Source of the DNA: Promethearchaeati archaeon SRVP18_Atabeyarchaeia-1
Lineage (GTDB): Archaea > Asgardarchaeota > Atabeyarchaeia > Atabeyarchaeales > Atabeyarchaeaceae
DNA length: 64,000 bases
Direction of reading: 5' to 3'
Assembly: GCA_037308085.1 (NCBI GenBank)
Contig: CP147779.1
Location: 1,024,001-1,088,000, forward strand
The stretch's first letter is position 1. Each line of letters opens with the position of its first letter. Below, one piece after another: positions 39,658-60,028 of this stretch. The position numbers were made by a program, and so were the translations under genes. Under the pieces are notes generated by a model, which was given only the letters and a program-made list of their open reading frames with translations, had not been told where the DNA came from and did not search any database.

Positions 39658-40227
39658 GTGGCGAGCAAATTGCGCGAAAACCCCGAGATACGTCCAATGC
39701 GTTTGGAGTACGTTGAGGTCATAAAGATCATGGTGATAGGCGAAGGCGGCGTAGGAAAGACAACACTAATACATCGGTTCGTGACTGGCGAGTATTCAGA
39801 CCAATCCATGACAATCGGGCTTGGGTTCGCTTCCAAGACTATGAAAGCCAGGGATGGAAAAACGGTCAAGCTTCAGATATGGGACGTTGGCGGCCAGAGC
39901 CGCTTCAGGCTCCTCCTGCCTTCTGCGAAAGGTGGCGCGAAGGGAATAGTCCTGGTTTTTGATCTCTCTGTCCCCTCAACATTCATTAAGCTCGATGATT
40001 GGGTCAGGCTTGCCAGATCAGGATTTCCACCGGACAAATCCATCCCAATTGTGCTCGTGGGTGCAAAGTGCGATCTTGCAAGGCAAGTGATGGCCGATGA
40101 GGCAAGAAGGTTCGTTGCGAGAATGAAGTTAGATGGATACGTGGAAACAAGCTCGAAAGCTAGAATCATGATTGAGGAGCCATTTGCGAGACTTCTCCGG
40201 CTGATCACTCTAAGAAAGAATTGTTGA
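39658..40227 (+). CDS. Rab/Ras-like small GTPase
   Basis: GEGGVGKT, TIG, IWDVGGQ, GAKCD, ETSSK. Confidence 0.92.
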   Translation: MASKLRENPEIRPMRLEYVEVIKIMVIGEGGVGKTTLIHRFVTGEYSDQSMTIGLGFASKTMKARDGKTVKLQIWDVGGQSRFRLLLPSAKGGAKGIVLVFDLSVPSTFIKLDDWVRLARSGFPPDKSIPIVLVGAKCDLARQVMADEARRFVARMKLDGYVETSSKARIMIEEPFARLLRLITLRKNC

Positions 40228-42990: not shown

Positions 42991-45402
42991 TCATCTAGAT
43001 GAGGTTTTGGAGTTTTTCAGCATGTTCTTGAGTCTTTCTTGTTTTCTCTTCTGTGGGAAGCCAATTTCGCTGTAGAAGGTTTTAATTGCTTCTTTCGCGC
43101 CTATTTGCAGAGCCCACAAGACACCGTAGCCCCCTTCCCTTTTGTAAATCTCCTTTGGGCGCTCATTGAAGCCAATCCCAAAATCGCCTGTCAGGATTCT
43201 TGCCTCCGACTCCAGGATTTGTGGGCGTATCGAGTCTAGTGTCTCTTGGATGTCTTGAGGTAGATCTTTGAACATGTAGTACTTGACGCCTTTCTTATGC
43301 AGGTCGGCTTTGCGCGTCTTTCTCTTCCATTGTTCGCTCATGATATCAAGGCGGTTCCTCTGCTCGACCGATAGATTATGAGTTCCATCTATGGCTCTCT
43401 CCAATGTTATTATTCCGCAATGTGTCGAAGGTGATCCTTCGTCACCGAAGGCTTGTACCAGCCACTCTCGTTTCATTTCAGGTGACCCTTGTCGTATAAA
43501 CGCCGGTATGTCCGGGTTTTGCAGAATGATTCTGCCAGTTACTGCCCCTGATCTCTGTAGTGTGTGACCAACGATGTCTGTTGTTGCGCGCAGTCTTGGG
43601 ATCCTACCGTCGTCGAATATTCTGTCGGTAATGTTTGGGTCGCCGAATATGTTTCTTAGTGATTCCGCGATCCTTCTTCTTTGTTCGTCGTCTTTGTTTG
43701 TGTATTCGAATCTCGGTCCTGCGCGTTTAGGTGTGTGAATTGATCCGTCTGAGTATCTTGCTGCCATGATTCTTGCTCCGTGTGGGGTTCTTAGGTTGAA
43801 GGGGAGTTTTGGGTTTTTGATTGCTCTGGCGTTTCCTATTGCTGCGGTGTGGTGGTTTGGCTCGTCGAGGTCTCTGCCGAGGTATCTAAGGATTGGGATA
43901 AGTTTGTTGGCCACCATGCCGTCCATTCGTTCGCTCAGTTGGTCGTTTAGGTATTTGATTGCGATCTGTGTTTCTCTTTTCCTGAGTTCGTTTCGGAGTT
44001 GTGTTTTTCCTCCTGCTTTGTTTATTGCTGCGTGTAGTAGTTCATGTTTGTACTCTTTGTCGAGGTAGATGGCGATTGTTTGTGGCAGTGCGTACCATGG
44101 TGTTTCGTAGGGTGGGATTGTCTTGTTTTCTGTTGGTATGTGGAGGGTTTCTTCCCCTTGCCTTGTTTTGTATCTGTAGAGGTGTAGGTTTCCTACCTTT
44201 TCTGCTTCGATGGTTGTGATCTTGTATTCTTGGTTTTGGTATTCTATTGTGATTGCTTTGCCCTCGAGTTTGAAGGTTGTTTTTTCGCGTGGTTTTGGTG
44301 GGGGGTGTGTTTTTTCGGTGAATGGTCTGGGGGAGAGGGCTATGCCATCTGTTCTCACGGTTAGAGTTTGGGCTTCTCCTCTTCTTGCCGTTGTTAGCAG
44401 CTTCTCGGTGGCGTCTTCGCTGAGTCTTATCGCTTTGTTTTCGATTTGCCCCGTAGCGAGTATTTTCCCTTGTTGTGTTTGGATGGCGATACTTGCGTAG
44501 TCTCCGTCTCTGACTTTGAGGCCGAGTTCTTCGAGTTTCTCGGTGAGCTGTATTCTTGTTTCTCCGCTAGTTGTGGTTGGTGTGACTTGGATGCCATGTG
44601 TCCAGGGGGGCTCTCCGGGTCCTCTCACGTTTAGGACATGGACATTTACTTTGTCTCCTGTCTTGATGCCTAGGTTTTCGATGTCTGCTTTCTTGATGTT
44701 TGCTCTTGTTCCCTTCACCACTGTTAGCACGGCGATGGCTTGGACGCCGTCCTTCTCGAGCAGCGCCGTTATTATGTCTCTTCGGTGGAACTCGACGTTT
44801 GTCATGGGGTCAAGCTTTAGGTAGAATGTCTGCTGGGCTTGACTGTAGTCTACTCTTGCGCAGGGGTTTCGTGTACTCTCAATAAACGCGTCGATGCTAT
44901 AGGCTGCTCCTTTCCACTTTATGGCTATGTCTTGGCTTTCGGGTGATTGGAGGCTCCTCAATGCTTGCTCCAGGTCTTTCCCGGCCATGCGTGATAGTTG
45001 CTGTAGATCCTTTAGGGCGATGTGTTCTCTGTTGCTCTCCCAGTAGAACACTTGACTCTCACTGTATCCTAGCTCATGAGCAAGCCTGTGCCTGCTGAGG
45101 CCTAGCTCTGTGCGCCACACTCTAACTAATTCACCTGCACCAAGCACCCACGCATCGTGAACCCTTGTCTTGCTCAGCTCGGTTGTATTGGTTGCTTGTT
45201 CTGCTGCCGCCCTGTCGGTGTTGCTAAGGTGCTCTGTATTGGTCCTTGCAGAAGCGTCACCGTCGCCTCTTGTCTTGGTGCTTTCCGTTGTCTCCCCCTG
45301 CCCATGCGTGTCCACGTCATTGGGTTGTTGTTGTGGCTGCTGCTCTGATGCTTGTGATGGTTCTCGCCCGCATTCCGCTATTTTCGTGCCCTCGTTCTCC
45401 AT
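42991..45402 (-). CDS. Multidomain protein: low-complexity N-terminus, XRE HTH, AbrB-like segments, two-motif LAGLIDADG
   Basis: WRTELGLSRHRLAHELGYSESQVFYWES; LGIKTGDKV; IMAARYSDG and WLVQAFGDEG; FYSEIGFPQKRKQ. Confidence 0.78.
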   Translation of the reverse strand: MENEGTKIAECGREPSQASEQQPQQQPNDVDTHGQGETTESTKTRGDGDASARTNTEHLSNTDRAAAEQATNTTELSKTRVHDAWVLGAGELVRVWRTELGLSRHRLAHELGYSESQVFYWESNREHIALKDLQQLSRMAGKDLEQALRSLQSPESQDIAIKWKGAAYSIDAFIESTRNPCARVDYSQAQQTFYLKLDPMTNVEFHRRDIITALLEKDGVQAIAVLTVVKGTRANIKKADIENLGIKTGDKVNVHVLNVRGPGEPPWTHGIQVTPTTTSGETRIQLTEKLEELGLKVRDGDYASIAIQTQQGKILATGQIENKAIRLSEDATEKLLTTARRGEAQTLTVRTDGIALSPRPFTEKTHPPPKPREKTTFKLEGKAITIEYQNQEYKITTIEAEKVGNLHLYRYKTRQGEETLHIPTENKTIPPYETPWYALPQTIAIYLDKEYKHELLHAAINKAGGKTQLRNELRKRETQIAIKYLNDQLSERMDGMVANKLIPILRYLGRDLDEPNHHTAAIGNARAIKNPKLPFNLRTPHGARIMAARYSDGSIHTPKRAGPRFEYTNKDDEQRRRIAESLRNIFGDPNITDRIFDDGRIPRLRATTDIVGHTLQRSGAVTGRIILQNPDIPAFIRQGSPEMKREWLVQAFGDEGSPSTHCGIITLERAIDGTHNLSVEQRNRLDIMSEQWKRKTRKADLHKKGVKYYMFKDLPQDIQETLDSIRPQILESEARILTGDFGIGFNERPKEIYKREGGYGVLWALQIGAKEAIKTFYSEIGFPQKRKQERLKNMLKNSKTSSR

Positions 45403-45744: not shown

Positions 45745-48700
45745 ATGGCAATAAGATTCGTCGGGGGTTCTCCTCCAAGCGATGAGGAGACTTTTGGGAA
45801 GCTGCGCCCGTACGTGGCTGGGTGGTTCAAGGAGAAGTTTGGGGAGATGACTCCCCCGCAGAAGTACGCTATTCCTCTGATCCAGAGGAACGAGAATACG
45901 CTGGTGTTTTCCAGCACGGGGTCTGGCAAGACCTTGGCCGCCTTCCTGTCCATGATAGACAAGCTGTTCTCGATGGGTGAGAGCGGTGAGTTAGAGGAAA
46001 CTGTTTATGTCCTCTATGTTAGTCCCCTCAGGGCGCTTAACAATGATATCAAGCGGAACTTGATGGTTCCACTTGAAGGTATAAGGGAGACTTCGCGCAG
46101 GGCAAATGTGGAGTTGCCCATGATAAATGTGGCTGTGAGGACTGGGGATACGCCGCAGGCTGAGCGGAGCAGAATGCTTCGCCACCCGCCTCATATACTG
46201 ATAACGACTCCTGAGACGCTCTCTATAGTCCTTAACTCGCCCAAGTTCAGCGAGCGCCTAAAGACGATTAAGTGGGTGATTGTCGACGAGATCCACGAGT
46301 TGTGTGACTCCAAGAGAGGAGTTCACTTGTCTCTTAGCCTTGAGCGGCTCCAACACCTTATTGGCGGTGACAAGGAGTTTGTCCGAGTCGGTTGCAGTGC
46401 GACTCAGGCCCCGGTGGATGAGATAGCCAAATTCCTCGTGGGGTACCGGGATGATGGTTCTTTTAGAGACTGTAACATAGTTGATGTCTACTCTACGAAG
46501 TCGCTTGACATTGGCGTTATCACGCCAGTCTCAAATCTCGCGTATGCAAGCTACGACTCTGCAACAGACAACATGTATGAGCTTCTGAAAAAGCAGATTG
46601 ACTCGCACACTACGACACTCGTTTTTACGAATACTCGTAGCGGAACGGAGCGTATCGCCTTCAGGCTCAAGGAGTTGTATGGCGATGAATCCGTGGATCA
46701 GCTGGCAGCCCACCATGGCAGTCTGAGCCGTGATACGAGGCTCGATGTGGAAGAGCGCCTGAAGAAGGGGCAGCTGAAAGCGGCTGTCAGCTCAACTTCC
46801 CTTGAACTCGGTATAGACATCGGGTACATAGACTTGGTCTGCCAGATTGGTAGTCCCAAAAGCGTCGCTAAGGGCTTACAGAGAATCGGGAGGGCAGGGC
46901 ATGCGCTTCATGAGACTTCCATCGGTCGCCTGCTCGTTTTCGACCTTGATGACCTTGTCGAATGCACAGTATTGGTTAAGTCTGCCTACGAAGGGAAGAT
47001 CGACAGGGTTGCGATACCGAGAAACTGCTTGGATGTATTGGCCCAGCACTTGGTGGGTATGAGCATCGAATCGAAGTGGACTCCAGATGATGCATTGAGA
47101 CTGATTAGGCGTTCCTATTGTTATCATGAATTGCCTAAAGAGGATTTCATGGGTGTAATCAGGTATCTGGCAGGGGAGCATGTTAACCTCGAAGAACGCG
47201 GGGTGTACAGGAAGTTATGGTTTGACGAGGATCAGCAGGTTTTTGGTAGGAAGAGAGGCGCACGGATGATATACTTCCTGAACATTGGGACTATCCCCGA
47301 AGAATCGAATTACAGGGTTCTCCTTGAGGAGTACAGGAATCCGTTGGGGCAACTGTCGGAGAGCTTCGTTGAGCGGCTTCAGCCGGGCGACATTTTCGTG
47401 CTAGGTGGCAGAGCGTATGAATTCAGAAGAACAAGTGGCATGAAAGTCTATGTGAGGCCCGCCTTTGGTCGGCGCCCGACGGTTCCATCATGGACTGGGG
47501 AAATGCTTCCAAGGAGTTTCGACTTGTCATGCGAGATCGGCAAGTTCCGGCAGGTAATAGCTGGTAGGATTAAGAAGGAAGGTTTGGATGCTACGAAGAA
47601 GTGGCTTCTCGAAGAATACCGGGTTGACGAGAGATCTGCAGACAGCATGATCGTGTACTTCAGGAACCAGCTTGCGATCACGGGAACAGTGCCAACAGAC
47701 AAGAGGATCATGATTGAAGGGTACATCGACAAGAGAGGGAGACTCAACATAATCTTCCACAGCGTCTATGGTCGTCGGGTGAATGACGCACTGAGCAGGG
47801 CATACGCCTATGCCATAACTAGGGTCTCAAAGGTGAATGTGGGCACAGCGATTCTGGACGATGGATTCGTCATCACTCTTCCAGCAGGAAGAATGATCGA
47901 CTTGAACAGGGTTCCGCTACTCGTAAACCCTGAGAATGTCGAAGACTTCATCCGCAAGGCAATTAGAAAGACGGAGCTTTTCAAACAGAGATTCAGACAC
48001 TGCGCAGTAAGAAGCTTCATGGTTCTAAGGATGTACAAAGGGTGGGAGATATCTGTAAGCAGACAGCAGACCAGGGCGATAAAGGTCCTTGACCTGCTTG
48101 AGGGAATGGAGGACTTCCCCGTCGTAAAAGAGACTTACCGAGAGATACTTGAAGACGACATGGATCTTCCAAACGCAAAGAACGTTATCAACGGGCTAAA
48201 GAGCGGAGATATCGAGTCTAGGGTTCTTCCGCTCACTGACGTGCCTTCCCCATTCTCACACGGTCTTATCCTCGTTGGGGCTGAAGACGTGGTGTTAATG
48301 GAGGATCGCGAAGCATTATTGAGAGAGTTGCATCGGCAAGTCCTTTCAAGGGTAATAGGCGAAGCTGGGGAAGTGCTCTTCTCGGAGGAGACCGTTCAGG
48401 CTTTGTATAACCAGAGGCAGCACTTAACTCCTGAAACACAAGGGAAAGAAAAGGAAGACATAGTACGAATTCTGCATGATATAGGACCGGCGGAGATATT
48501 CCGAGACACATATCCCACGATCTTGAACAGAATGGCAGTTGATCCTGAGACCGTTAGCCAATGGGCTGAGGAGCTCGTAATGGAGGGTCGAGTAATTATC
48601 ATTAGAACTCCAAAAGGGGAGAGCTTCGGAGTTACGACAGACGACTTCGTAACCTACTATCATGTTTTCAGGAGTGCGCCAGGCGAGCTCGATGAGCTTG

Positions 48701-51700
48701 AGAAAAACATGCTGAAGGCGTTGGAAGTCAAACCTCTCAAAGCCAGCGAACTAATGGTATCGCTGAATTCCGGTTACCCCCATGTTAGGAGAGCATTGCG
48801 AAGACTGGAAAGGGCCATGCTCGTAGTGAGATCAAAGTATTCGCCGAAGGGATCCGCAAGGGAGCAAGCTCTTGAGACAACGTGGAGTCTCACGTCGAGG
48901 CATCTCCCGAGCCAGGTTTTTGCCAGTGTGGAACATGCCGATCCTGAGGAGGAGAAAGAGAAGGCCGTAAAGCATTTCCTTAGGTCCTTTGGTCCATGTG
49001 TCGCGTCGGAAGTGGCCACTCACCTCAACATGTCAGAAGAAGAAGCAGAAAAGATCTTCAACCGCCTAGAGAGGATGGGCGATGTACTGAGTGGATATTT
49101 CATACCCTCAAAGCCGCCTCGCCAGTACCTCCTTGCCGAAGACAGGGAACTACTAAAGCAGATAGAGAAGAGTCGAGAACCCATTCGTTTCCCAGAGGCA
49201 GTGGTGACCCAGCTAGTCTTGGAGAAGCAACATCTAACTCCCACCACGAGAGGCAAGGGAGAAGAAGACATAGTCACAATGATCGCCGAGCTGGGACCAA
49301 TACAGTCGCACAGAGCTTTGTACCACAGGATCGAGAAATTCGATCTAGATACACTGAGAAGGCTTTGGGCTTCCGAGAAGAAGCTAATGTTGGGCAGATT
49401 CACGGAGAGAGGTCTATCATATATCCGTACAAGTGACTTGCCGATCTACGTAGCGCTGAGAGAAGCTAACGGAGTATTGCTCTCAGACCTTGACAGACTT
49501 GTATTGGGCATCATAGAAAAGGAGAATCCTATAACCAAAGGCAGAATAACGGCATTGACCGGGCTTGAAAAACCCACGGTCGAGGAGAGTCTGGAAAGGC
49601 TTGAAGAATCTCTGCTGGTTTTGAGGACCGTCCCTTACGACATGGAGCCCGAGGCCCAGCAAGTAATCCTGTACGAGCCTGCGGGTAACTATACTTCGCA
49701 GTTTCAGAAACTCTCAAGAAGTGAGGCGCTTAGGACTCTTATCCAGCGCACCATTGAAGGACATGGGATGATCACAATACAGGGCATAATATCATTAACT
49801 AATCTTCCATACGACGAAGTCGAAAGCACCCTGTCGGCACTCAGGAGAGAGAGACTGATTGTCTCAGGGCAATTCATTGAAGGCATACCAATAGAAACCT
49901 ACCTCGTCGCGAAGGATCTCCAAAGGTTGAAGGAACTCGGCAGCGAGTTTGCTGTCGGCGGGACGAAGGAGGGTGAGATCCCATTTGAGGGCAGGATCAT
50001 GGTGGATGTCCTCGGCAATTTGGACCCCTATACTTGGAGGGTTGCCCAGCAACTGTCAGACCTCTATGGAAGTGCTTTTCTTAATCCGATAGTGGTTGAC
50101 GGCGTGCTTGTAGGGGCAGCCGACCTTCATGTTACCCAGGACCTATTGCACGTAGCTGACCTAAAGGTGTCTGAACTTCTGCTCGAAAAACCTGAGCTGT
50201 TGGAAAAAATCGCGAAACGATTCATCGAAATCGCTTCATATTACGGGCTTATGGCTGCGGAGGTCGAATTTGTCTGGGGGCAGCCGGCCGTTACAGAGAA
50301 AAACGAGAAACTGGTCAAGGTTTTCACCGAACTCGGCTATGAGATCGTTGGCGACAGGCTCTGTTGGGGAGAAACGCCTTCAGAACTATTCGACGAGCAG
50401 GTTGTCAGGGTATTTCAGTTTAAGAAGCAACACGTGGATCCAGAAACCCGGGGTAGAACAAGAGACGATGTCTATCGGATAATGCGGGACATCGGTCCCA
50501 TATGGACCCCCTGGGAGGAGAAGCTTAGCATTAGAGTGGAGGATTTGAGAAGAGAATGGGTTGAAGAATTGTTGAAGAAGGATAGGGTACTAGTCGAAGA
50601 TACTCTGCTTGGGTCAAAACCGATGCTTCTTCCGGTGAAAGACTGGCCGACTTACTGGTGGGCGTGCAAGACACCTGTGAAGCTTAGCTTAGATGCGGTG
50701 AAACTACTGAAAGTAATAAGAGAGAATGGTCCGATTTCGAAAAAGTCGCTCATTAGGAAGTCGCTGATGCACCAGTTAGACGTAGAACACCTTCTGTCGA
50801 TTCTGTGCCAAATGAGACTGATCACGAACATAGGAAACTCGACAACTGCGGGAATATGGGTCACTATTGACCAATGGCTTCCGGCAACGGTGAAGCTGGA
50901 GGACTATGTTGAGCCACATGAGGCGAGAAGGAGGATCATCCTCAGGCTTCTTAGAAGCTTGGGTCCATTAACGGTATCGCAGTTACGTGAGCTTACGGCG
51001 CTTCACTCAAGGCAGGTAAGACTAGTTCTCTCGGAACTCAGAGATCAAGGAATCGTGGGACTTGGTAGGTTCCTGAGATCTCCCAGGACGCAGATACAGT
51101 TTGTCGCTCTTGAGGACTTGGAGGAACTGCATTCCATCTCATCAATGGTGAAGGACGGAGACTATGGGAGAACGACCCGTGCTTTTACGGTACCGCCGGG
51201 CGATCCACTCTACTACGCCCTGAAGGACGAAATCAAAAGCACCTTCAGAACGGGATGGTGCTATACAGTGGTTCTAAATGACGATCTGGTCGCCGCCTTC
51301 AAATCAAAGGGAGCAAAGAAGAAACACTTCATAATAACTGATCTATTAATTCAAGGCAAGCAGGTCGAGAGGAAAGAAGTCATCCTAAAGATCATCGGCC
51401 AAATAGATGAAACTGCTAGATGCGTCGGATCCCTTGACATCGAAGTCAAGAGTATCAACGAGAAACCCGTGACCTATGAAGGCAACCAAAGTATTGTGGA
51501 GATCTTCAAGTCTGCGGGCTACAAGGCTGGCGGACTAGTTCTCTACAAACCTTTCTCAGTATCTATTCAGCCAAGCGGCAAGGAGGTTTTCGCCGAGGAT
51601 GTTTGCGTAGAGTTCTTGATGCGTAGGCAACATCTCTCTCCGCAGTACAAGGGTAGAGGAAAGGATGAAATACTCAAGGTTCTGCACGACATAGGACGTG

Positions 51701-52782
51701 TGGAATGGTCTGACTCGATTGCAGTCCGCATAGAGGAATTCAACCCCAACGATCTCGATGAACTGAAGTGGAAAGATCAAAAGATTGTTCACGGCAGATT
51801 TCTGAATGAGAACCTGACGCAAGTCCCAACCGACGAGCTACTCGAATACTACTATGCTTCGAGGTCCCCCTCATTCGTTCTAGGATACGACGATCAACGG
51901 ATTCTTGAACTGCTAACCAAGTCTGGGCCTCTAGAAGAAAAGGAGATAACGGCAAGAACTGGTCTAGATCCGGAGACTGTACGTGGATCCCTGGAAAACG
52001 TGGAGAAAGCCGCTAGAATAGTTAGAGTCAGAAAAGGTGACTCGCACTATACAACTGATAGCTGGTTCTACGATGTCATCGACCACTACCTGCCAAGCGG
52101 TTCATCACAATTCGAGAGCACGAGTCCGAAGGACGCGAGAAAGAAGATCATACTGAAGTTTCTTGCAGCAAACGGCCCTGTGAGCTTAAGGCAAATCGAG
52201 GAATGGTCACACATGGAGTTAGCTGAGATCAAATCAGTTCTATCAGAGCTTGAGGCAGAAGGAAGAATCTCCTCAAACGTCTATGTCGAAGGGGTCGCAG
52301 GCAGAAGATATGTTAGAAAGGAGGACCTGCCAGAACTGAGATCACTAGAAGAGCTGTACCTCAGCCAGAAGCTCACCAACGGGGCGCCCTACTATGTCAC
52401 ACTTCCGAACTACGACCCATTAATCAAAACATGGAAAGACGAGCTGCTCAGAGTTTTCTCAATTGGTCTAATAGAACTTGGAGCAGACTACTATATGTTG
52501 ACACTTAGATCAGGAAAACCGGTGGCTGCTATACAAGTCCACTTTGAGGTAAACACCATGAGGATACACGACATGGAGCTGCTCGACTCGCTTGACCTCA
52601 GAATTGTGCAAGACGTGATCAAGGACATAGAGAAAACCGCGCATGACTCAAGAAAAATGGAGTTGCAGATCGAGCGCATAAGCGGTAGAGGAGCCCAGGA
52701 TAAGCTGAATAGGCAGAGAGTCGAGACATTTCTTGAGAATGGTTATCGACTTAATGAAGGAATCCTGCGTAAGAAACTATAA
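45745..52782 (+). CDS. lhr: Giant Lhr helicase with four C-terminal AlkZ/HTH_42-like modules
   Basis: TGSGKT, SPLRALNND, DEIH, SAT, HHGSLS, TSLELGID, QRIGRAGH, GTIP; repeated QHLxP..G..DI...DIGP units. Confidence 0.93.
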   Translation: MAIRFVGGSPPSDEETFGKLRPYVAGWFKEKFGEMTPPQKYAIPLIQRNENTLVFSSTGSGKTLAAFLSMIDKLFSMGESGELEETVYVLYVSPLRALNNDIKRNLMVPLEGIRETSRRANVELPMINVAVRTGDTPQAERSRMLRHPPHILITTPETLSIVLNSPKFSERLKTIKWVIVDEIHELCDSKRGVHLSLSLERLQHLIGGDKEFVRVGCSATQAPVDEIAKFLVGYRDDGSFRDCNIVDVYSTKSLDIGVITPVSNLAYASYDSATDNMYELLKKQIDSHTTTLVFTNTRSGTERIAFRLKELYGDESVDQLAAHHGSLSRDTRLDVEERLKKGQLKAAVSSTSLELGIDIGYIDLVCQIGSPKSVAKGLQRIGRAGHALHETSIGRLLVFDLDDLVECTVLVKSAYEGKIDRVAIPRNCLDVLAQHLVGMSIESKWTPDDALRLIRRSYCYHELPKEDFMGVIRYLAGEHVNLEERGVYRKLWFDEDQQVFGRKRGARMIYFLNIGTIPEESNYRVLLEEYRNPLGQLSESFVERLQPGDIFVLGGRAYEFRRTSGMKVYVRPAFGRRPTVPSWTGEMLPRSFDLSCEIGKFRQVIAGRIKKEGLDATKKWLLEEYRVDERSADSMIVYFRNQLAITGTVPTDKRIMIEGYIDKRGRLNIIFHSVYGRRVNDALSRAYAYAITRVSKVNVGTAILDDGFVITLPAGRMIDLNRVPLLVNPENVEDFIRKAIRKTELFKQRFRHCAVRSFMVLRMYKGWEISVSRQQTRAIKVLDLLEGMEDFPVVKETYREILEDDMDLPNAKNVINGLKSGDIESRVLPLTDVPSPFSHGLILVGAEDVVLMEDREALLRELHRQVLSRVIGEAGEVLFSEETVQALYNQRQHLTPETQGKEKEDIVRILHDIGPAEIFRDTYPTILNRMAVDPETVSQWAEELVMEGRVIIIRTPKGESFGVTTDDFVTYYHVFRSAPGELDELEKNMLKALEVKPLKASELMVSLNSGYPHVRRALRRLERAMLVVRSKYSPKGSAREQALETTWSLTSRHLPSQVFASVEHADPEEEKEKAVKHFLRSFGPCVASEVATHLNMSEEEAEKIFNRLERMGDVLSGYFIPSKPPRQYLLAEDRELLKQIEKSREPIRFPEAVVTQLVLEKQHLTPTTRGKGEEDIVTMIAELGPIQSHRALYHRIEKFDLDTLRRLWASEKKLMLGRFTERGLSYIRTSDLPIYVALREANGVLLSDLDRLVLGIIEKENPITKGRITALTGLEKPTVEESLERLEESLLVLRTVPYDMEPEAQQVILYEPAGNYTSQFQKLSRSEALRTLIQRTIEGHGMITIQGIISLTNLPYDEVESTLSALRRERLIVSGQFIEGIPIETYLVAKDLQRLKELGSEFAVGGTKEGEIPFEGRIMVDVLGNLDPYTWRVAQQLSDLYGSAFLNPIVVDGVLVGAADLHVTQDLLHVADLKVSELLLEKPELLEKIAKRFIEIASYYGLMAAEVEFVWGQPAVTEKNEKLVKVFTELGYEIVGDRLCWGETPSELFDEQVVRVFQFKKQHVDPETRGRTRDDVYRIMRDIGPIWTPWEEKLSIRVEDLRREWVEELLKKDRVLVEDTLLGSKPMLLPVKDWPTYWWACKTPVKLSLDAVKLLKVIRENGPISKKSLIRKSLMHQLDVEHLLSILCQMRLITNIGNSTTAGIWVTIDQWLPATVKLEDYVEPHEARRRIILRLLRSLGPLTVSQLRELTALHSRQVRLVLSELRDQGIVGLGRFLRSPRTQIQFVALEDLEELHSISSMVKDGDYGRTTRAFTVPPGDPLYYALKDEIKSTFRTGWCYTVVLNDDLVAAFKSKGAKKKHFIITDLLIQGKQVERKEVILKIIGQIDETARCVGSLDIEVKSINEKPVTYEGNQSIVEIFKSAGYKAGGLVLYKPFSVSIQPSGKEVFAEDVCVEFLMRRQHLSPQYKGRGKDEILKVLHDIGRVEWSDSIAVRIEEFNPNDLDELKWKDQKIVHGRFLNENLTQVPTDELLEYYYASRSPSFVLGYDDQRILELLTKSGPLEEKEITARTGLDPETVRGSLENVEKAARIVRVRKGDSHYTTDSWFYDVIDHYLPSGSSQFESTSPKDARKKIILKFLAANGPVSLRQIEEWSHMELAEIKSVLSELEAEGRISSNVYVEGVAGRRYVRKEDLPELRSLEELYLSQKLTNGAPYYVTLPNYDPLIKTWKDELLRVFSIGLIELGADYYMLTLRSGKPVAAIQVHFEVNTMRIHDMELLDSLDLRIVQDVIKDIEKTAHDSRKMELQIERISGRGAQDKLNRQRVETFLENGYRLNEGILRKKL
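48376..52779 (+). repeat. Four protein-level repeats starting at 48376, 49186, 50386 and 51586
   Basis: LFSEE..QHLTPETQG / RFPEA..QHLTPTTRG / LFDEQ..QHVDPETRG / VFAED..QHLSPQYKG. Confidence 0.85.
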
Positions 52783-52785
52783 ACG

Positions 52786-53430
52786 GTGGAGGAGATGTCG
52801 CGGGCAATGTCAATCTGGTTGAAATATAGAGAGGAGATGGCTCAAGTAAAGAACTACCTCAAGACAACTGCTCCTCATGGAGATGACTCGTTCTTCCCCT
52901 ACAGCGATCCCGCCTACAAGTGGGAGCACACCCTGATGGTTCTGAACAGCGGCCTGCTACTCGCCAAAGAAGAGAGGGCCAACATTGACGTCGTAGCCCT
53001 TGGAGCGATTTTCCATGACGTATGCTACTACACTGCAAGCTACGAAGAGCATGGGCACGAAGGATCCAAGTACGCCACGGAGTATATGAGGAAGAAGGGC
53101 TACCCGAATGAGCTTATTGCGAACGTATCGTACGCCGTAGGTGTTCATATTGGAGAAATGAATCCCAAGACTATAGAAGCTAAAATAATCCAGGATGCGG
53201 ACACACTTGACAAGGTTGGGGCGGTCGGCGTCGCCCTGATACTATTGAACGCGGGCGCAGGAAAGTTGCTCTTTCTCGACGCGATCAACAAGTACAAGAC
53301 TGAATATGTGAAGAAACTCGACTTCATGGTCAACTCTATGTGGACAAAGAAGGCTCGCCAGATAATGGCAGAGCGGACGAACTTTCTCACCGCCTACTTC
53401 AAGCAGCTTGAAAGCGAATTAACAAGCTGA
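52786..53430 (+). CDS. HD-domain phosphohydrolase
   Basis: EH, FHD, EHG, QDADTLD; 3 nt after the lhr stop. Confidence 0.9.
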   Translation: MEEMSRAMSIWLKYREEMAQVKNYLKTTAPHGDDSFFPYSDPAYKWEHTLMVLNSGLLLAKEERANIDVVALGAIFHDVCYYTASYEEHGHEGSKYATEYMRKKGYPNELIANVSYAVGVHIGEMNPKTIEAKIIQDADTLDKVGAVGVALILLNAGAGKLLFLDAINKYKTEYVKKLDFMVNSMWTKKARQIMAERTNFLTAYFKQLESELTS

Positions 53431-54103: not shown

Positions 54104-54487
54104 ATGAGTAAGAACCTCAGGAAAGATCTTGAAACCGTGTTAAAGGATTTTGAGTCGACGGCCGGCGATGTCGAGGGCTCAGCCCTCGTTAGAAGCGATG
54201 GTTTGATCGTTGCATTTGCGATGCCCAAGAGCACAGATGAGTCTCTAGTTGCAGCTATGTCCGCTGCTCTTCTTAACATTGGCACGCGAACAGCTAATGA
54301 ACTCAGTCGCGGTGACCTTGACAAGGTCATAGTGAGCGGTACCAAAGGCGATGTCGTCTTAATGGGTGCAGGAGCTGACTCAGTTCTCTCAGCAACCACC
54401 AAGGCAGGTGCGAACCTCGGGCTCGTACTTGTCGAGATGAAGAGAACGAGTTCAAAGCTAGGACACCTGATTTCTGGAGGTATTTAG
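54104..54487 (+). CDS. Roadblock/LC7 domain protein
   Basis: SALVRSDGL, VAAMSAALL, ANLGLVLVEM. Confidence 0.93.
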   Translation: MSKNLRKDLETVLKDFESTAGDVEGSALVRSDGLIVAFAMPKSTDESLVAAMSAALLNIGTRTANELSRGDLDKVIVSGTKGDVVLMGAGADSVLSATTKAGANLGLVLVEMKRTSSKLGHLISGGI

Positions 54488-58425: not shown

Positions 58426-58639
58426 GAGTGAAGTGGTTCGAACCGTGCCTATTCCTCTCTATTAATGAGGATCCCTGCGCGAGGAAAGTTGCCACCAAAT
58501 TGAATGTGGATGGACACCTTATATTCCGACCTGCTCTATTGGTACTGAGTGACCTACAGTTGATATAGTGCGAGACTCCTGTCAAGGAATATCATAGATT
58601 AGGAAGGCGTTGCACAGAGTCCGATCGGCGGCTGGAACT

Positions 58640-60028
58640 ATGTCAAACGAATCCACGAAGAATGGTTATGCTGATGAAAAGAATTGGCTCGCTCCACTAC
58701 TAAGGGAGACGGGCGTCTCGGCAGCCGATCTGACCTATGATTTCAACTTGATAAAGGGAAGGGCCACGAAGAGCAATATGTGTGTCCTCTGCAAAGGTGG
58801 CAAGTTTCTTTGTGGCAAAACAAGATGCTCGGTACTGGCAAAAGCATTGACCTATAAGAAGATTGCGCGATCCATTGATAAGCTTGAGCTCGACGGAGCA
58901 TCTCCGCCCGGGGTCTTCATAGGAAGAATGGGTTACCCTAGGGTCTACGCTGGCCCTCTTGTTCCCCCAACTCATGGAGACACTTCGATCATGGATATTC
59001 CAGAACTCTGGGGGCCATGCGGATTTGCAAAGTCAATCGATGACATTATTGATTTTAGGCTGAGTCTCGTAAGGGGAAAGTCACGTATGACCGTTGATGC
59101 GGCAGCGTTAGACACCGGCAGCAGAATTATGGATGTAATAACGGAACTCGCCTTGGCAAGGGGTCCAGTTGAGACGGAAATGCTTCTCAGAAAGAAACCG
59201 AGTAGAACAGTATTGCTCGATGACGACATTCAGCCTTTTGGACCTTCGGCGCCAATCGACAAAGTGAAAGTCGGAAATGTATACTGGGATCCGCAGCTTG
59301 AGAAGGCTTACGGAGACCACGACCTAAAGGCAGCCGAGGCAGTGTCCTCGCTCTACGATAGCGGCGTGCTTGTATCCCGAATACAGAAGGCGTTCAGCGT
59401 TGGTGCCTTCGGAATCAAGAAGAACAGAAAACTCGTGCCAACGAGATGGAGCATAACCGCAGTCGACAGCCTCATATCAAAAACACTTCTGGAGAAGGTG
59501 ACTCTTCAGCCTCCCATCAATGAATACAGGATCTACGAGTCAAACTACCTTGACAACAGGTGGATCATTCTCATGGCTCCGCTATCATGGAGCTACGAAC
59601 TCGTTGAAGCATGGTACCCAGGCACCACGTGGAATCCCGACAGCAGTAACATCGTGATTTTCTCTGATCACGAAATGTTCGAGGGCAGAACAACTTACCC
59701 GGACATAGGAGGATGCTACTTCGCATCCAGGCTGGCAATAGCCGAGAGGCTCCTAGCAGAACGCCGCCAGGCAACCGTCGCCGTTCTGAGGGAGTCTCAT
59801 CCAGGGTACGTCCTCCCTGTGGGCGTCTGGTCTGTCAGAGAGAGTGTGAGAAATGCCTTGAGAAATCCCCCTATGAGGTACAACAACCTGCGTGATGCAA
59901 TCAGCCACATTTCCTCCAAGTTTGCGATACCACTATCCCGATGGCTCAAAACCAGCAAACTGCTCCAAGAGTTGCTGTATCAAACCAGGATAACTGATTT
60001 CCAGCAGTTGAGAACTTCGGAAGGGTAG
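58640..60028 (+). CDS. Nre-family DNA repair protein, copy 2
   Basis: CVLCKG..LCGKTRC, GASPP, LVPTRWSITAVD, PIP-like QTRITDF. Confidence 0.92.
   Translation: MSNESTKNGYADEKNWLAPLLRETGVSAADLTYDFNLIKGRATKSNMCVLCKGGKFLCGKTRCSVLAKALTYKKIARSIDKLELDGASPPGVFIGRMGYPRVYAGPLVPPTHGDTSIMDIPELWGPCGFAKSIDDIIDFRLSLVRGKSRMTVDAAALDTGSRIMDVITELALARGPVETEMLLRKKPSRTVLLDDDIQPFGPSAPIDKVKVGNVYWDPQLEKAYGDHDLKAAEAVSSLYDSGVLVSRIQKAFSVGAFGIKKNRKLVPTRWSITAVDSLISKTLLEKVTLQPPINEYRIYESNYLDNRWIILMAPLSWSYELVEAWYPGTTWNPDSSNIVIFSDHEMFEGRTTYPDIGGCYFASRLAIAERLLAERRQATVAVLRESHPGYVLPVGVWSVRESVRNALRNPPMRYNNLRDAISHISSKFAIPLSRWLKTSKLLQELLYQTRITDFQQLRTSEG

Follow-up and report, generated by a model that had tools for sequence, protein, structure and literature searches.

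A 2345-residue Lhr helicase with four tandem AlkZ-like modules in Atabeyarchaeia

Introduction

Helicases of the Lhr family translocate 3' to 5' on single-stranded DNA (PMC7437997, PMC9841417). Reports on the AlkZ-like C-terminal domain (CTD) of long Lhr proteins differ. The mycobacterial domain shows no glycosylase activity. Tetramerisation of Mycobacterium smegmatis Lhr is essential, however, and its CTD is needed for crosslink repair (PMC9841417), while this CTD lacks the catalytic motif and bound no DNA (PMC8053096). The E. coli protein, on the other hand, has been reported to be a uracil glycosylase even without a QxQ motif (PMC10953399). Among the related HTH_42 (PF06224) proteins, the AZL2 clade is an active glycosylase that excises 7-methylguanine (PMC9040887), and the DNA-binding loop of AlkX is essential (PMC13303869). 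Long archaeal aLhr2 proteins with one additional HTH_42 domain have been noted in Methanomassiliicoccales and Thermoplasmatales (PMC8301817).

Two complete genomes of Atabeyarchaeia have been published (PMC11291895). Here we analyze an Lhr gene with four AlkZ-like modules from this lineage. It lies in a window of 64,000 nucleotides, by which we mean the whole stretch of DNA that was analyzed; its features are listed in Table 1.

Table 1. Features of the Lhr gene and its downstream neighbour (window positions; aa, residues of the 2345-aa protein)
Feature	Position	Strand	Remarks
Lhr helicase gene	45745..52782	+	2345 aa; no second Lhr and no other PF06224 protein found in the genome
Lhr core (aa 1-877): RecA1, RecA2, WH, domain 4	45745..48375	+	domain and profile matches
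R1 (aa 878-1147), three winged helices without a beta subdomain	48376..49185	+	counterparts: module 1 of three-module Lhr and bacterial CTD N-subdomain
R2 (aa 1148-1547), full AlkZ-fold module	49186..50385	+	acidic (-18); counterpart: bacterial CTD C-subdomain
R2 Q-S-H (aa 1187-1189)	49303..49311	+	at the AlkZ QxQ position; non-canonical
R3 (aa 1548-1947), full module	50386..51585	+	basic; no catalytic motif, no DNA-binding loop
R4 (aa 1948-2345), assigned as the extra terminal module	51586..52779	+	resembles the last partner-gene module of other Asgard archaea and stand-alone AlkZ-like proteins
R4 E-W-S-D (aa 1987-1990)	51703..51714	+	near the AZL2 consensus
R4-specific conserved loop insert (aa 2240-2250)	52462..52494	+	where AlkX has its DNA-binding loop
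HD-domain hydrolase gene	52786..53430	+	probable start ATG 52807; syntenic neighbour

Results and discussion

An intact helicase core is followed by four genuine repeats

The Lhr gene is the longest open reading frame of the whole source genome, a single contig of 2,808,651 bp. The same four-module gene is present in the second complete Atabeyarchaeia genome (2,756,679 bp). The core scored 1200 bits against PRK13767 (cut-off 849), its winged helix and domain 4 matched PF19306 and PF08494, and the SF2 motifs (Walker A, DEIH, SAT and motif VI) are all intact in RecA1 and RecA2. D181 and E182 correspond to M. smegmatis D170 and E171, and W583 aligns with the coupling tryptophan W597 of the mycobacterial enzyme. 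With these motor motifs, the protein is best explained as a helicase of the long-Lhr kind that uses ATP to move 3' to 5' in DNA repair. In a core tree built without characterised aLhr1 or aLhr2 references, the four-module core is nested among archaeal multi-module Lhr proteins with a support of 100, and the tree requires the number of modules to have changed repeatedly.

The initial annotation of this DNA had described an Lhr core followed by four repeats that start at residues 878, 1148, 1548 and 1948, and both the reading frame and the repeat alignment bear this out. The repeats are 270, 400, 400 and 398 residues long and share 23-28% pairwise identity (E values from 1e-17 to 1e-38, 27-50 standard deviations over shuffled sequences). 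All four pass the cut-off of PF06224; in agreement with structure prediction, this profile scan upholds their earlier description as AlkZ-like. The exact period of 400 residues is correct as a measured spacing. As a constraint it had to be rejected, as it arises despite many internal insertions and deletions and equivalent modules of relatives vary from about 360 to 420 residues.

Orthologues of 2344-2352 residues with about 66-84% identity were obtained from independent assemblies, and a search for self-similarity at the DNA level within the gene found none. Thus, the array is real and not an assembly artefact. It is also old. The dN/dS ratio is 0.05-0.16 in every module as compared to 0.02-0.07 in the core, so that all four modules are under similar purifying selection. 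A search of sequencing runs listed no RNA data set with the gene. That the extra modules are idle products of a neutral, lineage-specific duplication, or of misassembly, would fit the lability of module number and the restriction of the four-module form to one family among the best 150 of 1993 matches. The agreement of the assemblies, the lack of a DNA repeat and dN/dS ratios of R3 and R4 as low as those of R1 and R2 argue against it; the selection signal largely refutes this explanation, which we find hardly credible.

Multi-module Lhr proteins and a two-module partner gene in other archaea

A module profile was searched against 1.84 billion representative sequences, and the best 150 of the 1993 matches were examined. 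Three-module Lhr proteins of 1640-1950 residues form about 40 full-length clusters among these, whereas the four-module form is a single cluster, its 2344-2352-residue members all being from Atabeyarchaeia. The three-module form is widespread in Thermoplasmata and Asgard archaea, where it occurs in several families. Other Asgard archaea have a core-sized Lhr of about 850-970 residues or a protein of about 1410 residues with two modules that lack the beta barrel. The earlier statement that archaeal Lhr is usually core-sized therefore holds for some Asgard archaea but not for the lineages with the three-module form or the long HTH_42 form (PMC8301817).

In one Asgard family (f4) the module profile was matched in 27/27 genomes searched. 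All 21 f4 loci examined (L023-L024, L035-L051, L065-L066) contain a three-module Lhr gene of 1906-1933 codons that is immediately followed by a gene for a two-module protein of about 780 residues. A similar partner gene is found in families f13 and f23 (L030, L031, L052, L054, L058) and in L069. Partner proteins have 700-810 residues and two AlkZ-like modules, C1 and C2, and are mostly missed by Pfam; C1 often has a Q at the motif position and lacks the loop described below. The partner gene often follows the Lhr gene as TAA-ATG without a gap, giving an apparent frame of 2700 residues. Read-through of this in-frame junction was rejected because gaps of +1, -1, -4 and -8 nucleotides also occur. 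Thus, the number of modules among the relatives is two, three or three plus two, a range of 2 to 5.

The Asgard three-module Lhr and its partner share several features with the 2345-aa protein: the order of the modules, the loop insert on the last module and a C1-C2 junction that matches the one between R3 and R4. They differ from it in that five modules are distributed over two polypeptides, as compared to four in one polypeptide, and in that C2 lacks the H/Q motif. The three-module proteins probably overlap with the long aLhr2 proteins of PMC8301817, with which the Atabeyarchaeia protein has in common an archaeal Lhr core and a long AlkZ-like tail; a single extra HTH_42 domain was described there, as opposed to the multi-module array, fourth module and partner gene found here. 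Previous work thus covers Lhr itself, the AlkZ-like CTD and long forms in archaea. No description of the multi-module array, the fourth module or the partner gene was found in the literature searched, which covered few subscription papers. As to the question raised at the outset of whether this architecture is a described common subtype, the three-module form is widespread, and no multi-module array was found described in the literature searched.

Several additional observations were made in this survey. In the two-module Asgard proteins L025, L028 and P0019 the RecA domains are interrupted by one or two segments of about 500-570 residues, probably inteins, and L028 has an in-frame TAA within its second module. 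P0007, P0008 and P0102 are Lhr proteins of 1730-1790 residues with a first module of three winged helices, followed by a C-subdomain of the bacterial type and one more domain at the C-terminus, which is DUF5591 in P0007. In the Asgard family f9, Lhr domain 4 was not found (0/56 genomes searched), and many of these genomes have stand-alone AlkZ-like genes. A stand-alone gene for a 371-residue AlkZ-like protein with a Q-W-D motif is also present in the second Atabeyarchaeia genome (L034:5595-6710); none was found in the complete genome that contains the window.

R1 and R2 together correspond to one bacterial CTD

Confident AlphaFold2 models were obtained for R4 (pLDDT 91.5) and for R1-R3 (85.2). 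The R4 model matched AlkX (9ZD6; Z 28.8, rmsd 3.1, 340 residues aligned), AlkZ (5UUJ; Z 27.4, rmsd 3.6, 326 residues) and the M. smegmatis Lhr CTD (7LHL; Z 25.1, rmsd 4.5, 364 residues), and the R2 model matched 9ZD6 with a Z score of 29.8. The fold of three winged helices and a beta subdomain, which is shared with AlkZ, YcaQ/AlkX and AZL2, is assigned to R2 and R4 by structure match and to R3 by model and profile. R1 has the winged-helix part only and stops after the third winged helix, confirming the earlier remark that the first repeat lacks the DP-containing beta region; the beta subdomain is thus present in three modules only. It is about 30 residues longer than that of AlkZ, as in the Lhr CTD.

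In each full module the beta subdomain (positions 52390-52779 in R4, with equivalents in R2 and R3) resembles GNAT folds (Z 11-12, about 120 residues aligned, rmsd 2.5-3.5), and its end is similar to motif B. A GNAT activity was rejected, the acetyl-CoA motif A after strand 4 being present in no module class. The AlkZ/Lhr beta domain is possibly of degenerate GNAT origin; the literature search found no paper linking HTH_42 with GNAT.

R1 and R2 are colinear with the entire CTD protomer of M. smegmatis Lhr (7LHL 893-1503; Z 24.8, 517 residues), the rmsd of 18.1 reflecting a predicted hinge between R1 and R2 that is unlike that in 7LHL. In profile comparisons, bacterial-type C-subdomains and modules matched at 99.3%. 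As judged by eye, the LCWG at the end of R2 coincides with the LDWG that ends E. coli Lhr. Thus, the protein corresponds to one ordinary long Lhr (aa 1-1542) followed by two extra copies of the C-subdomain: R1 and R2 together are one bacterial Lhr CTD, R3 and R4 are additional, and the four repeats are not four protomers of a tetramer. As compared to long bacterial Lhr (bLhr-HTH; M. smegmatis 5V9X/7LHL and E. coli), which has the same core, the Asgard protein has two further full modules, three winged helices in R1 where the bacterial counterpart has two, and neither the tetramer salt-bridge pair nor E. coli D1536.

These results bear on the proposal, made in the initial annotation, that the array is a single-chain mimic of the bacterial oligomer. 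The repeats of a monomeric enzyme would then pack as a pseudo-D2 cylinder in place of the CTD tetramer. In favour of such a mimic, tetramerisation is essential in M. smegmatis, and interfaces that have become fused can drift in sequence. It retains some weight because the beta-bearing modules of a partner-gene lineage add up to exactly four (M2, M3, C1 and C2), as many as the tetramer has C-subdomains. The 2345-aa protein itself, with R1 and R2 accounting for one protomer, has three copies of the C-subdomain and not four. In addition, neither residue of the main interface pair R1286-D1237, which is retained in E. coli, is present in any repeat when mapped by eye via E. coli Lhr, and the number of modules in relatives is variable, having changed repeatedly over the core tree. 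We regard the proposal as weakened by these findings and as rather improbable.

Catalytic and DNA-binding features differ between the modules

At the motif position, where AlkZ has QAQ, the residues are EIF in R1, QSH in R2, WTP in R3 and EWS in R4; QAQ aligns with the R2 and R4 sequences. A canonical (Q/H)xQ or QxD motif is present in none of the four modules. In R2, Q-[ST]-H is found in 10/10 orthologues but is not retained in module 2 of other lineages. The R4 motif reads HWSD in three of the ten orthologues, QWTD in three, QWSD in one, ELSD in two and EWSD in the 2345-aa protein. Its first position is thus always H, Q or E, and D1990 is invariant. The form (H/Q)-W-(S/T)-D, present in 7/10, fits the AZL2 consensus (H/Q)-aliphatic-(S/T)-(D/E) only if tryptophan is allowed, and the 2345-aa protein has E rather than H or Q at the first position. 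The earlier claim that only repeat 2 keeps an AlkZ-like motif is incomplete, R4 being AZL2-like in most orthologues.

The minor-groove DNA-binding loop is absent in R1-R3. R4 alone carries a conserved insert, seven residues longer and with an invariant core, which by its position is a putative DNA-binding loop. R4 combines this insert with its AZL2-like motif; the array differs from AlkZ, AlkX and AZL2 by its tandem arrangement on a helicase, by the lack of QxQ/QxD and by the absence of the loop in R1-R3. The modules also differ in charge. R3 is the sole basic module (+10 here; orthologues range from +4 to +15), with a lysine-rich loop at positions 51301-51327, whereas R1, R2 and R4 are acidic, the net charge of R4 being -10.

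A further proposal had been that of a multi-lesion-sensing helicase-glycosylase, with several modules acting on different damaged bases, R2 for example through its Q-S/T-H. The invariance of this motif at the catalytic position and the uracil glycosylase activity reported for E. coli Lhr without QxQ speak in its favour. R2 and R3, however, lack the loop that AlkX and AlkZ need, the R2 motif does not recur in module 2 of other lineages, and the position of the catalytic D1536 of E. coli Lhr is occupied by C1540 in R2 (10/10 orthologues) and by leucine in R3 and R4 of the 2345-aa protein. Moreover, the genome has a UDG-family gene of its own. We therefore consider this proposal very unlikely.

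R4 is the extra module

Comparison with 60 three-module Lhr proteins gave R1 and R2 as best matches of their modules 1 and 2 in 49/60 and 53/60 cases, respectively, and in the tree R2 clusters with module 2 (SH-aLRT 97). R3 is in the place of module 3 (M3) and is its best match in 38/60. Judged by sequence, R4 is thus the extra module.

Several features connect R4 to C2 of the partner gene. The loop segment has 27 residues in R2 and R3, every second module has 27-28, and the median is 27 in M3 and C1, as compared to 34 in R4, 36-37 in C2 and a median of 36.5 in stand-alone proteins; the R4 loop is hence 2-3 residues short of C2 and the stand-alone median. The R3-R4 junction has 37 residues, that between C1 and C2 35-40, and that between M2 and M3 mostly 31. 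A profile of the C2 beta region favours R4 with 29.8 bits as against 13.7 and 1.1 bits. Deep branching is poorly resolved in the module trees. In a free tree, R3 and R4 fall with stand-alone proteins rather than with C2 (93), and a tree constrained to group R4 with C2 is not rejected (p-AU 0.345). A hybrid origin of R3 from M3 and C1 was not demonstrated, the tail scores being uninformative. The four-module chain may have arisen by fusion with loss of one module, by fission with duplication or by capture of a free gene. Probably, it is a fused form of the Lhr-plus-partner complex, which is itself absent from the literature searched.

Genomic neighbourhood

The whole neighbourhood of the Lhr and HD-domain genes is syntenic in Atabeyarchaeia. 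The HD gene directly follows Lhr in 6/7 Atabeyarchaeia loci with downstream DNA, at gaps of up to 118 nucleotides, and is absent after the L002 orthologue; no HD homologue was found in any other multi-module Lhr locus examined. The adjacency reported in the initial annotation is thus correct, but the tight coupling is not conserved, and a role of the HD hydrolase as functional partner is not supported.

Upstream of Lhr, positions 42991-45402 (-) code for an 803-residue HTH protein. On visual inspection, its C-terminal part resembles a LAGLIDADG or intein endonuclease. The genome has five paralogues of this protein. L033 alone has a homologue at this site, L001-L003 having none there, and the gene is possibly a mobile insertion beside Lhr. 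An archaeal gene for Nre, a mitomycin C repair factor, lies 6 kb downstream (58610-60028, +) and is syntenic in L002 and L003, which may be coincidence. A Ras/Rab-type small GTPase (39658-40227) and a small protein that appears roadblock-like by eye (54104-54487) are typical Asgard eukaryotic-signature genes.

A proposed division of labour

The reading that we favour with moderate confidence is a division of labour within a repair helicase: the array would be largely a non-catalytic scaffold, and the terminal R4 would engage the lesion. The core would load onto single-stranded DNA at a stalled fork or crosslink and unwind 3' to 5'. R1-R2 would serve as the inherited scaffold, the basic R3 would hold duplex nucleic acid, and R4 would be the module at the lesion, where it may cut the glycosidic bond of an alkylated or crosslinked purine and so excise it. 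The chain would be the fused equivalent of the Asgard three-module Lhr and its two-module partner, one module shorter. Counted against such a role of R4 are the glutamate at the first motif position, the tryptophan in place of an aliphatic residue, the net acidic charge and the shorter loop. As C2 has the loop without the H/Q motif, the role common to R4 and C2 may be non-catalytic.

The main rival is a purely structural array, in which all four modules are dead pseudo-enzymes that serve oligomerisation, partner binding or generic binding of duplex or RNA:DNA, with no lesion-specific role of R4. The lack of QxQ/QxD in every module, the acidic nature of R1, R2 and R4 and the rarity of H/Q at the motif position of three-module Lhr (M2 3/60, M3 1/60) are in line with this, as is the M. 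smegmatis CTD, motif-less and not binding DNA (PMC8053096). It is opposed by the invariant loop insert of R4, by its AZL2-like motif with the invariant D1990 and by the terminal position of the loop-bearing module in partner genes as well; on balance, we think a purely structural array unlikely. Equally doubtful is an extension of the lesion-engaging reading to a self-contained crosslink-repair machine, in which a translocase would be joined to catalytically dead copies of the fold and, after these, to R4 as an active AZL2-type glycosylase. In that case a fused archaeal Lhr-plus-partner hetero-complex would replace the bacterial homotetramer and would be a conserved feature of Asgard lineages close to the root of the eukaryotes.

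Conclusions

Overall, the work presented here corrects the view of archaeal Lhr as a core-only protein and points to an unannotated two-module partner gene. The natural series of two, three, four and three plus two non-identical modules offers a means to tell scaffold, DNA-binding and catalytic roles apart for each module.
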